From the NCBI GenBank assembly GCA_002433895.1, contig DJJA01000004.1:24132-88131 (forward strand): 64,000 nucleotides of DNA, read 5' to 3'. The notes under the pieces were generated by a model that searched no databases, was not told the DNA's origin, and saw only the letters and a list, made by a program, of their open reading frames with translations. Positions 49,156 to 61,147 of the stretch are shown here, one piece after another. The position numbers and the translations under genes were made by a program. This DNA is from Candidatus Gottesmanbacteria bacterium UBA6580. Its GTDB lineage: Bacteria > Patescibacteriota > Microgenomatia > UBA10105 > UBA927. Position 1 is the first letter of the stretch. Each line of letters starts with the position of its first letter.

Positions 49156-49207
49156 GTTTTTACTAGTTTTTCATTGAGTTTTTACCAGTTCTTACAAGTG
49201 CTTGTAA
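49156..49207 (-). repeat. array of five ~10-bp direct repeats
   Basis: Minus strand TTACAAGCAC TTGTAAGAAC TGGTAAAAAC TCAATGAAAAAC TAGTAAAAAC. Confidence 0.7.
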
Positions 49208-49209
49208 GT

Positions 49210-55500: not shown

Positions 55501-58500
55501 GACGGGAAGCACAGGATCTACTGGGAGCGTTGGTGCAGCGGGACCAACAGGATCGACGGGTTCCACCGGAGCACAAGGTGAACAAGGCGCATCAGGTCCA
55601 ACAGGAAGTACGGGTGCTACCGGCGCCGTCGGATCTTCAGGTCCGACTGGCGCAACAGGGTCAACAGGAAGTGTGGGAAGTTCAGGGCCTACTGGTTCCA
55701 CCGGCGCAACCGGCGCTGCAGGAGCGAGTGGACCCACCGGTTCAACCGGAGCCACCGGAACTGCGGGAGTCTCTGGTCCCACGGGAAGTACTGGAGCAAC
55801 CGGAGCAAATGGTTCATCAGGTCCAACGGGTGCGACAGGATCGACAGGAAGTGCTGGAGAAAATGGTCCCACAGGATCTACCGGTGCTACGGGTGCAAAT
55901 GGATCATCCGGTCCTACCGGCTCCACGGGGTCAACCGGAACAAATGGTGCAAGTGGACCGACGGGAGCTACCGGAGCAACGGGGTCCGCCGGAACACAAG
56001 GAGCATCGGGTCCGACAGGGAGTACGGGGTCAACCGGTACGCAAGGATCATCAGGCCCCACGGGAGCAACGGGAGCCACTGGAACACAAGGATCTTCCGG
56101 TCCTACTGGTTCAACAGGCGCAACTGGAGGAATAGGTGCATCCGGACCGACCGGGGCTACAGGGTCAACAGGAAGTGTGGGAAGTTCTGGTCCTACGGGA
56201 AGTACTGGAGCAACAGGAGGAGTTGGTGCATCAGGCCCAACCGGAGCAACCGGATCCACCGGTGCTCAGGGAAATGCAGGTGTTGATGGCCCGACTGGGT
56301 CTACCGGTGCCACTGGTACGCAAGGAAGTTCAGGGCCTACTGGATCCACCGGAGCTACCGGAAGTATCGGTGTGAGTGGTCCAACAGGTTCCACAGGTGC
56401 GACTGGTACAGCCGGCGCATCCGGTCCCACAGGAAGTACGGGAGCTACCGGAAGTACCGGAGAAAATGGTCCGACCGGAACAACTGGAGCAACTGGCGCA
56501 AATGGTCCAACAGGAAGTACCGGCGCAACGGGTAGTGCAGGAGCTTCCGGCCCCACCGGGTCTACGGGTGCAACCGGAGGAGTTGGTGCCTCCGGTCCCA
56601 CTGGTTCCACGGGAGCAACAGGAGGAGTTGGAGCAAGTGGACCCACAGGTAGTACCGGTGCCACCGGAGCAAATGGTCCAACGGGTAGTACAGGAGCCAC
56701 TGGTAACGTTGGTTCTTCCGGTCCTACTGGCTCAACAGGTGCAACCGGATCGCAAGGCGCTTCAGGTCCTACTGGATCAACTGGAGGAATCGGAAGTTCC
56801 GGTCCAACTGGGTCCACCGGTGCGACTGGCTCTGCAGGTGAACAAGGAGCTAGTGGACCCACAGGGTCAACAGGCACAACTGGCGCAAATGGTCCCACTG
56901 GTTCCACGGGAGCAACTGGTACACAGGGTGCAAGCGGACCGACAGGGAGTACGGGGTCAACCGGTACGCAAGGATCATCAGGCCCCACGGGAGCAACGGG
57001 AGCCACTGGAACACAAGGATCTTCCGGTCCTACCGGAAGTACCGGTGCCACTGGTACGCAAGGAAGTTCAGGGCCTACGGGAAGTACCGGAGCTACTGGT
57101 AATGTTGGCTCTTTCGGACCAACGGGTTCTACCGGAGCAACTGGCGGAGTTGGTGCAAGTGGACCGACAGGGGCTACCGGGTCTACAGGAAGTGCTGGAG
57201 AAAATGGTCCCACAGGAACGACGGGAGCCACTGGTGCAAATGGCCCGACCGGAAGTACGGGAGCAACTGGTACACAGGGTGCAAGCGGACCGACAGGCAG
57301 TACAGGAGCAACGGGTGTAGCTGGCGCCTCCGGACCGACGGGTTCTACCGGAGCAACTGGATCGCAAGGCGCATCCGGACCGACCGGGGCTACAGGGTCA
57401 ACAGGAAGTGTGGGAAGTTCTGGTCCTACGGGAAGTACTGGAGCAACAGGAGGAGTTGGTGCATCAGGCCCAACCGGAGCAACCGGAGCAACGGGGTCTG
57501 CTGGTGCAAGTGGCCCAACAGGAGCAACAGGAGCTACTGGTTCACAAGGAAATGCCGGACTTGATGGCGCTGATGGTCCCACCGGTTCTACCGGTGCCAC
57601 TGGCGGCATTGGTGCAAGCGGACCGACAGGTGCTACCGGATCAACAGGAACTGCAGGAGAACAAGGAGCTTCCGGACCAACGGGTTCTACCGGTGCAACC
57701 GGATCAATTGGTTCTTCAGGTCCTACCGGTTCTACTGGTGCCACTGGAGGAGTTGGAGCAAGTGGACCCACAGGTAGTACGGGAGCTACTGGTTCTGCAG
57801 GGGAACAAGGTGCTTCCGGTCCAACGGGATCTACTGGGGCAACTGGGTCACAAGGTGCCAGTGGTCCTACTGGTGCGACTGGAGCCACGGGTGGAATTGG
57901 TGCGTCAGGTCCAACGGGCGCGACCGGCGCAACGGGTAGCGCAGGAGCTTCCGGCCCCACCGGGTCTACGGGTGCAACCGGAGGAATTGGCGCCTCCGGA
58001 CCGACGGGATCTACCGGAGCAACGGGTGTAGCTGGCGCCTCCGGACCGACGGGAGCAACGGGAGCTACAGGAAATCAAGGATCCGCGGGAGCCTCTGGTC
58101 CTACCGGAAGTACCGGAGCCACGGGAGCAAATGGTGCGTCAGGTCCTACCGGTTCAACAGGATCGACCGGAGCAAATGGTGCGTCAGGTCCTACCGGAAA
58201 CACCGGTGCAACTGGTGCTGCCGGAGCGGGTGGCCCCACCGGTTCGACCGGAGCGACGGGAACACAAGGATCCGCGGGATCCTCTGGTCCTACCGGAAGT
58301 ACGGGGGCAACCGGAACTCAAGGATCCAGCGGTCCGACGGGGTCAACTGGAGCAACCGGTGTAGCGGGTGTTACCGGTCCAACGGGTTCTACCGGTGCTA
58401 CCGGTGCTGCCGGAGCAAATGGCCCTACAGGGGCGACCGGAACGACTGGTGTACAAGGTCCTACCGGTCCTGCGGGTCCGGGCGGTGAAACATTTATATT

Positions 58501-61147
58501 AGATGGCGGCTCGTATCTCTATGTAAATACGACGTATGCGACCGACTTTAACTTTGACGATTTAGTATTGGGATTAGATGGTGATGCCGGAGCGACGATT
58601 ACCACCAATGATACCAACGAAACATTGGGAATTGATACCAACGGCACCGGAGCGATAAGCATCGGAACGGGAGCAAACTCAAAAACGATCACCCTCGGCA
58701 ATACCTCGTCTACGACCAGTCTCGTGCTTACCAAAGGCGCGTCGGGGAATATTACATTTACCGGATTTGACTGTTCTTCATACACAAACGGCGGTGTCCT
58801 CACAACAGATGCATCCGGTAATATTACCTGTGCCAATGATGATGGCGGCAGTGGCTCACAGTCACCATGGACTTCCGACATTGATGCCGATGGATTTGAC
58901 CTTAGTGATCTATCTAATATCCTATTCCGCGAAACCACGGGGGCTCCGACGGGTACCGATGTAGGCTTGCATCGGGATAACTCAGGGGATCTTAATCTCA
59001 ATGTGCTTACCGGTAAAACATTTAATGTACAGGTAAACGGCACGGATGAATACAATTTTTCATCAAGCGGACTTACTATCGGAACAAATTCGCTTATTAC
59101 CGGTGCTACCACTATCGAATCGACAGAACTTGACCGGCTTGACGGCAAAGACGCCGCACTCGTTGATCAGAACGATCTGACCAGTGGTGACGGCAGCGGG
59201 GGAACCAGTAGTGGATCAGGATTGGAAGCGGGTACCGGTGGGATTGGCCTTTTGCAGGGATGTAGCGATGACCAGGTGCTAAAATGGAATGAAAGTTCTG
59301 CGGTATGGGAATGCGGAAGCGACCGCGCGACGGTAAATATCCGGAAAGCCGCAGATGAAACGATCACTTCAAGCGCCGCGTTGCAGGACGACAACGAGCT
59401 GTTGTTTGCGGTCGCCGCCGACGAAACGTGGGCAGTGGAAACATCATATACATATTCGACAGGTGGTTCATCCACTCCTGATATCCGTGTTGGCCTCAAC
59501 GCGCCGAGCGGAGCCACTTGTACGTATGGAACAGTGAATATTTCCCATGCAGGAAATTTAGCAGCTGGATCTGTCGCGTGTGACACGGCGATTGTGGTAG
59601 CGACGACGGCAACCGGCAACAAAAACGGTATTTTAAGCGGTACGGTAGCTAACGGCGCAAACGCTGGGAATATTACTTTCCGTTGGGGGCAGGGAACATC
59701 GAACACAACCGGCACCACGGTTGAGTTGGGGAGTTACATGTTAGGATTTAAGATTTCGGGTGCCGATTTGGCGGAGGTATATTATGCAACAAACAGTGGA
59801 ATTCCGAAGGGGACAGTTGTCTCGCTCGATCCTGCGCGAAACGCCGGGATAATTCCATCCCAACGGGCGTATGACCCGAACGTTCTTGGTATTGTGTCTA
59901 CCCAGCCCGGACTGGTGTTGGGTGAGTCAGGTGGGGGCGGAGGGATTCCGGTTTGGGTAGCGCTTACCGGGCGGATACCGGTACGGGTATCAGCTGAAAA
60001 CGGTCTTATCCGTGCCGGCGATTATCTCACGGCTTCCAGTCAGCCCGGAGTTGCCATGCGGGCAACCAAGGCTGGCGCTATCGTCGGGCAAGCGTTGACC
60101 AGTCAGGCATCAAGTGATCAACAGGAGGTTATCGCGTTTGCGAAAAATGGCTACTTTAACGGGGTTATGCCGGAAATCCCCGCTCCGTTTATAACGGGTG
60201 ACGAAGTAATCGATGAAAATGCAGCAGATCCGGCACAAGCGATGCTATCGTATTTCCTGCGGCAGCGGGGAAACGGGTCGTTGCAAGGGGCTCCGATGGA
60301 TGTAAGCAGCATCGTTGCTGACCGGGTAGTAGCAGGTTTGGAGGTTATCACGCCAAGATTGGTAGCTGATGAAATTGTGGCAAACAAAATAACTGCGGAC
60401 AGCATTTCTGCAAACCGTATCGAGGGATTGGAAATATTTACGGATAAATTATCGTCATTATCTTCGCAATACGATGCGTTGTTGACGATTGCCATGAGCG
60501 GTCAGGCAAGCGTTGCCGGGGTAGCGGTGGACACAACAATAGCAGGAACGCCGTCCGCTGTTGTTACACCAGCGGTTTTTGAGACGTTAATACAGTTTAT
60601 GCAGGGGATACGGGTCCGCGGCGGCGCATTGTTTGAAGATGCGGTATCTATATTGGGTAACCTTATTGTTCACGGTCAACTGGTCGTAAGTTCTGATACT
60701 GCGGGTATCGCCGTCATACCGAAATCGACAACAAGTGTTCGTGTATCATTCAAGAAGAAGTTTGACTACCCGCCGGTGGTGACGATCACCCCGGTATACG
60801 CGGATGATACGGATCGCGCGTTTATCGGTGATGCGGTGCGTGCTGTGGTAGCAGGGGTAACAGCAGAAGGTTTCACTATTGTGTTGGATGCCGCGGTGCC
60901 AAGGGATCTTGAATACAGCTGGATAGCGTTGGGGGTACAGGAAATCCGTAGAACCTTCGGAAAGCCGATAAGCGGTGATCCGGTGCCGACAAACACGCCG
61001 CAGCCAGCAGCGCCGGGAGAGCCATCGCCCACGGCAACACCCACACCGGGCGCATTGCAAGAGCAGCCGGGTCGCGATAGCAATCCCGAGCCTGAGTTAA
61101 AAGATGAGGTATTGTCCGAAACGTCGGGAAGTGCGGTAATCCAGTAA
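52544..61147 (+). CDS. giant collagen-like surface protein with tail-fibre-type C-terminal domains
   Basis: N-terminal TM; Gly-X-Y region 53570-58483; GADLAEVY...[11 protein letters not shown]...[24 protein letters not shown]...GFTI...YSWIALG. Confidence 0.9.

Follow-up and report, generated by a model that had tools for sequence, protein, structure and literature searches.

A predicted membrane-bound one-component repressor with a Cache sensor precedes a giant collagen-like fibre gene in Candidatus Gottesmanbacteria

Transmembrane transcription regulators such as ToxR, TcpP, CadC and VtrA join a DNA-binding domain to membrane helices, with the N-terminal head inside the cell and the sensor outside. 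Those of the ToxR/CadC type have one membrane helix and a winged helix of the OmpR type. Patescibacteria offer few regulators for study, and much about how these ultra-small cells recognise a host and form attachment structures awaits an answer. Here we describe a locus in a 64,000-nucleotide stretch of Candidatus Gottesmanbacteria bacterium UBA6580 (GenBank assembly GCA_002433895.1, contig DJJA01000004.1, positions 24,132 to 88,131; the whole stretch is termed the window, and unlabeled positions count from its first letter). At this locus, the gene for a 651-residue protein with a helix-turn-helix (HTH) head, ten predicted membrane helices and a Cache domain, hereafter the sensor, is followed by the gene for a giant collagen-like fibre. 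The evidence from homology, conserved DNA sites and gene order suggests that the sensor is likely a membrane-bound one-component autorepressor of the fibre operon in which a Cache ligand would set fibre output, and we place the probability of this reading at roughly 0.6.

The sensor has the DNA-binding domain and at least one membrane helix, both predicted, by which a survey of transmembrane regulators defines the class, and comparative evidence suggests the third defining feature, a signal-dependent change in the transcription of a target. In the accessible part of that survey several regulators control pili or fimbriae (PMC10269533). Its supplement holds 936 membrane regulators bearing dCache_1, the two available rows of which pair dCache_1 with HTH_18. 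It also holds 151 HTH_17 rows, and no Cache appears in 90 of these, including all nine with at least two helices; the supplements in their accessible form contain neither the string 'Gottesman' nor 'Microgenomat' (PMC10269533). A previous sequence-only reading of the window had called the domain combination unusual. This holds for the excisionase (Xis)-type head and the nine-helix spacer and not for the fusion as such, since Cache domains fused to DNA-binding domains are known from the same survey (PMC10269533). Compared with the surveyed regulators, the sensor has an HTH_17 rather than an AraC head, ten helices and its Cache domain last, and is likely a repressor of its own operon; compared with the ToxR/CadC type, it has HTH_17 in place of Trans_reg_C and ten helices. 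No description of the sensor protein or of its fibres was found in the full-text literature, subscription journals and bioRxiv supplements lying outside that scope, and the architecture is apparently undescribed in print.

Three further systems bear on the locus. The BldC/Xis-like MerR-type winged helices (PMC5859096; PDB 4J2N 'Gp37') have the same HTH_17 head without an adjoining dimerisation or effector domain. In the accessible part of the BldC study, this soluble 68-residue global regulator forms cooperative multimers arranged head-to-tail on direct repeats of 9 bp (PMC5859096). The sensor locus shares such arrays of direct repeats spaced by about one helical turn; the sensor head, unlike BldC, would be membrane-bound, with 10- or 12-bp spacing and sites at one locus. 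Head-to-tail binding by BldC may thus serve as a model for the sensor head, not as proof. In VtrA/VtrC and ToxR/ToxS, as far as the accessible text goes, the regulator gene overlaps the next gene, whose product is an extracytoplasmic partner anchored in the membrane (PMC9214523). The sensor-fibre pair likewise consists of tandem overlapping genes, the second encoding an N-terminal membrane helix, and differs from VtrA/VtrC in that the second gene encodes a giant fibre, the fibre's anchor has no lipocalin match and the regulator has its own Cache domain. The fibre itself we take to resemble BclA-type Thr-rich collagen-like proteins in its Gly-X-Thr shaft, globular C-terminal region and nearby glycosyltransferase genes; it differs from BclA in its ~1640 collagen residues, N-terminal membrane helix, novel anchor, chaperone- and H-lectin-like parts and dedicated sensor gene.

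The sensor gene (50589..52544, + strand) is an open reading frame (ORF) of 651 amino acids (aa) read from ATG, with a second in-frame start candidate, TTG, at 50553. Its head, an HTH_17 or excisionase-type winged helix predicted to be cytoplasmic (aa 1-52; 50589..50744, +), matches Pfam HTH_17 at aa 5-50 (E 2e-9) and NCBIfam excise TIGR01764, both above cut-off, and the nearest solved structure is PDB 4J2N (E 2e-6). A variable linker (14% identity) follows the winged helix, and no coiled-coil dimerisation domain adjoins the head. Family hydropathy then predicts nine membrane helices of no known family (aa 113-369; 50925..51695, +), at aa 113-132, 149-168, 177-194, 201-218, 223-243, 261-281, 289-308, 317-333 and 349-369; an atlas search with this bundle gave no usable match. 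The dCache_1 domain lies between helices 9 and 10, and the tenth predicted helix (aa 618-639; 52440..52505, +) is followed by a 12-residue basic tail and no output domain. The helix count rests on the family alignment, a scan of the single sequence having missed helix 4 and flagged one Cache strand. Each of the ten helices is hydrophobic in 92-100% of 209 homologues (those of at least 590 aa among 226 proteins; range 596-693 aa), and all 209 have an excess of Lys/Arg on loops 2-3, 4-5, 6-7 and 8-9 and on the tail. By hydropathy and the positive-inside rule, this argues strongly for a head inside and a Cache domain outside in every one of them. Pfam and family hydropathy thus bear out the order of parts first read from the window alone (HTH, nine helices, dCache, a last membrane helix, no output domain), and the opposite-side topology proposed with it is predicted across the family.

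More than 200 full-length homologues make up the sensor family. One homology search, with 8000 candidates scored, returned 103 homologues, 102 of them with HTH_17 and dCache_1, and with a profile 284 clusters were found at E<=1e-30, mostly full length among the 150 matches listed. The head is the most conserved part: mean pairwise identity is 71% for the head, 14% for the linker, 25% for the helices and 28% for the Cache domain, and the recognition-helix residues S17-T18-N19-x-x-Y22 are kept at 98%. This pattern indicates a head under strong selection, matching one conserved DNA motif. Longer fused sensor forms were absent from 7999 candidates and fused HTH-fibre forms from 8000, each being weak evidence. 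A phage origin was rejected, no relative having been found in viral contigs. Two broken sensors were also observed, one ending within the Cache domain and lacking a promoter or array upstream (L146:12508-13968, genome G287), the other with a frameshift that splits the head from the membrane part (L032:6001-7940, genome G012).

What might the sensor detect? Its dCache_1 domain (aa about 370-612; 51696..52424, +), predicted to be extracytoplasmic, matches Pfam at aa 390-566 with E 8e-25 and 88 bits against a cut-off of 45, and its best solved relative is the sensor of Bacillus subtilis KinD (PDB 4JGO, E 7e-15). Positions of the pocket type, Y454, P455, R467, Y469, S482 and D518, are conserved at 78-100%, and R467 (82%) aligns with the KinD arginine whose place is taken by alanine in entry 4JGQ. 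The sensor has no kinase, in contrast to KinD, while the conserved arginine is in register in both. In KinD this arginine presumably binds pyruvate, and a small carboxylate is a lead only for the sensor ligand; the host ligand suggested in the sequence-only reading is neither favoured nor disfavoured by the comparisons. KinD is listed among carboxylic-acid-binding dCache sensors in the accessible part of a further study (PMC8694187).

The sensor-fibre locus is not an assembly artefact. The source genome comprises 1.25 Mb in 6 contigs, and a single 15.7-kb contig from another study spans 48000-53800 with 17 substitutions and no gaps, which also disposes of the frameshift or misassembly that the sequence-only reading had named among the outcomes that would refute it; two further studies tile the locus at high identity. 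The system is real and conserved. Comparison was made across 44 related loci, and the genome sets behind the linkage counts given below overlap and consist of kin. Of the 44 titles, 24 read Gottesmanbacteria, Roizmanbacteria or Patescibacteria, one reads 'bacterium' and 19 are third-party bins named 'Gammaproteobacteria' or 'Pseudomonadales'; these last titles are likely wrong because the neighbourhoods resemble those of the other loci.

The giant fibre gene (52544..61147, +) encodes 2867 aa, and its start overlaps the sensor stop in the sequence TGATG, as had been read from the window at the outset. The N-terminus carries a hydrophobic helix (aa about 35-58) and a family-specific 'anchor' domain (aa about 60-300), together at 52646..53443 (+). 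The collagen-like shaft (53570..58492, +; Pfam Collagen) has 546 Gly-X-Y triplets, 319 with Thr at Y, so that 1638 residues are Gly-X-Y, in three runs. Beyond it lie a Peptidase_G2 (intramolecular-chaperone-like) match that is weak and below cut-off (59957..60121, +; E 0.003, 17.6 of 25 bits) and, near the C-terminus, an H-type-lectin-like domain (60737..60928, +; H_lectin E 3e-6, above cut-off). A PDB search with the C-terminus gave no match, and the anchor gave neither a lipocalin nor any other sequence match, nor a usable match in the atlas search. The source genome has one copy of the anchor, and its other collagen fibres lack it. A fibre gene with this anchor follows the sensor in 42 of 42 scorable loci among the 44 (41 by tblastn, one by profile). 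Among 301 genomes of the class, 19 have the sensor including its N-terminal part and 19 the anchor, 18 of them shared and with the two genes adjacent; six further matches are to Cache only. The linkage to a surface fibre that was first suspected at a single locus thus recurs in every scorable locus of the comparison. In G150 the sensor precedes a 4011-aa protein that fell below the anchor threshold. In G336 (L158:7400-7900) the anchor-bearing fibre has upstream of it only a promoter, a tandem array and, directly before it, an 80-aa head-only ORF, and the fibre frame has no ATG, GTG or TTG ahead of its helix; this is possibly a head-fibre fusion with a frameshift, or decay. Because distant fibres can be collagen-free (L145, L146, L148), the constant partner of the sensor appears to be the anchor and not the shaft.

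A conserved promoter and its repeats make the case for regulation. A putative sigma-70-type promoter (50445..50474, +), with -35 TTGACA, an 18-nt spacer and a weak -10, precedes the sensor, and TTGAC[AT] occurs within 260 bases upstream of the sensor in 44 of 44 loci, which makes the promoter assignment a good one. Downstream of the inferred transcription start lies the proximal array, a likely operator (50492..50533, +), with sites at 50492, 50502, 50514 (weak) and 50524. The far array (49159..49200, -), with sites at 49159-49168, 49181-49190 and 49191-49200, is inverted relative to the promoter array and has no adjoining TTGAC promoter; it is kept at the same place in close relatives. The two 10-bp arrays originally described are indeed present, Tandem Repeats Finder giving period-10 arrays at 49156-49199 and 50511-50542 (the right array begins at 50492), and they are mutually inverted (39 nt, 77% complementary). 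The 10-bp unit that they share, in opposite orientation, has the consensus AACTTGTAAA.

The motif seed was picked by eye from the window and its relatives, and the matrix was trained without the window. Genome-wide, the proximal array ranks first (41.7) and the far array second (40.0), the next score being 27.1 and the best in a reversed-genome control 27.8; no comparable array exists elsewhere in the source genome, which speaks against a wider regulon. All 27 loci outside training have a site, 22 have at least two and 19 a phased pair, against 18%, 1.6% and 0.2% in shuffled controls; a reverse-strand control of the 27 test loci gave 3 and 0. In 302 other upstream regions of the source genome, a set that includes the sensor locus, 32 have a site, three at least two and two a phased pair. 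Spacings of 10 (30/68) and 22 (16/68) dominate, and sites cluster at +47, +57, +69, +79 and +89 from the -35, on one helix face behind the inferred start. At a strict threshold the 44 loci (689 kb) hold 32 proximal, 22 fibre-start, 13 far-upstream and 5 other arrays, against 2 in a reversed-sequence control, and four loci have none; the fibre-start arrays (22 loci) are inverted and lie within 240 bases behind the sensor stop. The tandem pattern occurs in 11 of 11 genomes with the sensor gene and 2 of 16 without it, a test that covers the 27 of 61 genomes of known status, which are kin, and that is partly circular. The proposed pairing of head and repeats is well supported by these comparisons. 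Phasing, conservation at the promoter and genome-wide rank make it likely that the repeats are HTH sites, as the sequence-only reading had supposed.

The junction between the two genes suggests a further level of control. Across 43 loci, window included, 24 fibre frames start overlapping the sensor stop, eight have a 39-53-codon leader ORF that overlaps both the sensor stop and the fibre start, and 11 have neither, so that the junction is coupled in 32. In the window, a 9-bp GC-rich hairpin conserved in position (52579..52601, +) falls within the first codons of the fibre, at a distance of 35 nt from the sensor stop; the junction hairpin beats 95 of 100 shuffles in 27 of the 43 loci, mostly 25-40 nt behind the stop. 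Where the hydrophobic helix of the fibre begins, an in-frame TTG preceded at 10 nt by GGAGG (52637-52656) is a possible second fibre start behind the hairpin. Overlaps and leader ORFs around a hairpin would hand ribosomes on from one gene to the next and suggest coupling or attenuation.

How would such a protein set fibre output? We hypothesize that the excisionase-type head, predicted to be cytoplasmic, polymerises head-to-tail on the proximal 10-bp sites, where it would block its own promoter and hold down the sensor-fibre operon. Repression of its own promoter is proposed because the sites lie behind the inferred transcription start. The ToxR/CadC-like switch envisaged at first therefore keeps its one-component membrane regulator, while the position of the sites favours repression of its own promoter over activation of a separate target. 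A ligand on the outward Cache domain would change the head arrangement through the helices, perhaps by a change in oligomer state, a weakly held step that rests on analogy. Release from the sites would allow sensor and fibre to be made together, and the second, inverted array would provide a second foothold, either for looping or as a roadblock where the fibre gene begins. Through the hairpin and the ribosome relay, the fibre would be expressed only in step with full translation of the sensor.

Several observations weigh against autorepression in this form. The window's -10 matches the consensus at only 3/6 positions, and a consensus scan does not list the promoter. At the strict threshold, the proximal array is missing from 12 of 44 loci; L077, L078 and L087 have an intact sensor gene yet no array at all, a single strong site is present in each of the distant loci L143 and L144, and the window's own clade lacks an array at the fibre start. 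Isolated matches aside, 22 downstream and 15 upstream arrays have no own-strand TTGAC at promoter distance, and simple repression leaves these far and downstream arrays unexplained. BldC was not matched in PDB searches with the head, and its repeat period is 9 against 10/12 at the locus. The genome has six other HTH_17-type matches, five of them small free proteins that are alternative binders. Folding at the junction is confined to the hairpin, since the 146-nt segment as a whole does no better than shuffles (z 0.07).

The slot between the two arrays is best understood from its relatives. In 35 of 44 relatives it holds a divergent gene of ~320 aa (for example L022:4772-5731, -, and 34 other loci) with a Fic fold (E 6e-10 to FICD) and a C-terminal DeoR-like helix-turn-helix; the columns of the HPFxDGNGR motif, as in the FICD alignment, are degenerate, as is the catalytic motif they represent. 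In the window, the slot (49240..50390) has no supported gene, and the 1.3-kb gap as a whole yielded no supported ORF and no Rfam family. Its 1.15-kb middle (49240-50390) is absent from 17 other genus genomes (18 genomes compared), and a related contig links 49199 to 50462 via a stretch of unknown letters. Because most relatives have the Fic gene and the window's middle is species-specific, the arrays appear to be the conserved elements and the middle replaceable. The noncoding region that the sequence-only reading saw bracketed by the repeats is accordingly not a functional one but a species-specific sequence in place of a Fic-like winged-helix gene. The arrays follow the head and not the Fic gene, because they are kept in most Fic-less loci, in the window and in G336, where promoter, array and head precede the fibre.

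Other accounts of this gap were considered and set aside. A Fic pseudogene gave no tblastn, protein-HMM or DNA-HMM signal, and its global alignment was no better than shuffles; the G/T skew in the gap exceeds that at fourfold sites only modestly, and a Fic gene may have decayed there long ago. A structured RNA has no weighty Rfam match and is not conserved in the 17 other genus genomes, the best 150-nt windows reaching z -3.1 and -2.9 of 36 tested. A minus-strand ORF of 145 aa (50116-50553) overlaps the promoter, has no Pfam match and was judged spurious. In 17 of 44 loci the promoter spacer carries the motif GTGAAA, frequently followed by TTTCAC beyond the -10; the window has lost it. It was rejected as a site for the Fic protein and is clade-bound (present in 16 of the 35 loci with the Fic gene and 1 of the 9 without).

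An alternative hypothesis is that the protein is a tether first, pinning the fibre locus to the membrane through two or three arrays by transertion, with regulation secondary. This is compatible with autorepression and, as the leading role, unlikely. It would account for the promoter-less arrays of both orientations, whether they lie 1.3 kb upstream or where the fibre begins; the ribosome relay, conserved as 24 overlaps and 8 leader ORFs of 43, would suit it, and the accessible part of the work on VtrA/C-VtrB offers a precedent (PMC9977878). Two other collagen fibres of the genome carry fused DNA-binding domains before a membrane helix, HTH_17 and MerR in one (L169; G000:C2:3650-6022, -) and a phage-integrase SAM-like domain before a hydrophobic helix in the other (L170; G000:C3:10691-14104, +), and the head directly before the fibre in G336, with no start codon ahead of the helix, points the same way. 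However, the G336 arrangement is single among 27 family genomes and may reflect decay or a mistake in assembly, the match to RacA reaches only E 0.93, the most constant array sits at the operator position (32/44), and the conserved Cache pocket points to signalling. Less likely again is a ToxS/VtrC-like partnership in which sensor and fibre anchor together report assembly, loss or host contact. Anchor and sensor do co-occur in 18/19 and 18/19 of the 301 genomes though the shaft ranges from collagen-rich to collagen-free, the anchor is confined to this one fibre of the genome, and the genes overlap as VtrA and VtrC do in the accessible text (PMC9214523). A shared operon alone would also yield co-occurrence, the identity correlation of 0.81 has no control gene beside it, the anchor matches neither lipocalin nor anything else, and G336 keeps the anchor without a Cache domain. 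A wider idea, that a filament-forming DNA-binding membrane protein clamps the locus at two or three arrays and builds the fibre with the anchor once the Cache domain is triggered, is tentative and falls well short of probable; given the two further collagen fibres with fused DNA-binding domains, DNA-tethered fibres would then be a general design of these ultra-small bacteria.

Could the repeats serve something other than the sensor? Another factor, such as the Fic-like winged-helix protein or a small HTH_17 protein, might bind them, or they might act as RNA while the sensor acts elsewhere. The arrays flank the Fic-like gene in close relatives, five small HTH_17 proteins are encoded in the genome, and the proximal sites fall within the inferred 5' leader. 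Yet the arrays persist without the Fic-like gene, in the window too, helical phasing and both orientations fit double-stranded DNA, and the genome has no comparable array elsewhere, which leaves this account quite improbable. The most far-fetched proposal takes the inverted arrays as recombination arms of an invertible or excisable segment, with the head as directionality factor. The excisionase-like head and the inverted repeats around a slot of replaced content invite it, whereas the Fic-like gene has one orientation in 35/35 loci, far arrays are direct in five loci and inverted in six, contigs from four runs, which drop rare forms, show no strand-switch joint, no recombinase was seen beside the locus, and viral contigs contain no relative. 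The RNA-labelled runs that were searched consist of contigs with small shares or are probably DNA, and yielded nothing on expression.

Under the autorepressor reading, the locus offers a testable set: a Cache sensor, a head of 52 residues, the 10-bp operator predicted for it and a likely fibre output. Collagen rises about 0.29 nm per residue, and the collagen shaft alone (1638 residues) would be ~470 nm long. Knowing the Cache ligand would give a first clue to what these cells seek. If the reading is true, head-to-tail DNA binding of the Xis/BldC type would extend to a polytopic membrane receptor, and the sensor-fibre module would show whether a regulator bound to the membrane can determine where its own giant product is placed.

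Arrays were also seen away from the sensor promoter: before a membrane-protein cluster whose last gene is fibre-like (L153:8755-8784), near a presumably suf-like operon (L154:5056-5075) and preceding a glycogen-synthase gene (L155:7916-7957). An exact 18-bp tandem motif in nine viral contigs (L171-L179) may be chance. Upstream of the locus, the window has GT4-like glycosyltransferase genes in series, by eye (42294-49140, +), the last being a glycogen/starch synthase; comparable runs lie upstream of many homologous loci and could serve fibre glycosylation or glycogen metabolism. On the 3' side of the fibre are a Beta-lactamase2-family protein with an N-terminal hydrophobic stretch (61164-62102, -) and a TMTC-like membrane protein with TPR repeats (62340-63998, +), a pair also found 3' of the fibre in L023. 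The window further contains an ORF of 1967 aa at 18139-24042 (-).

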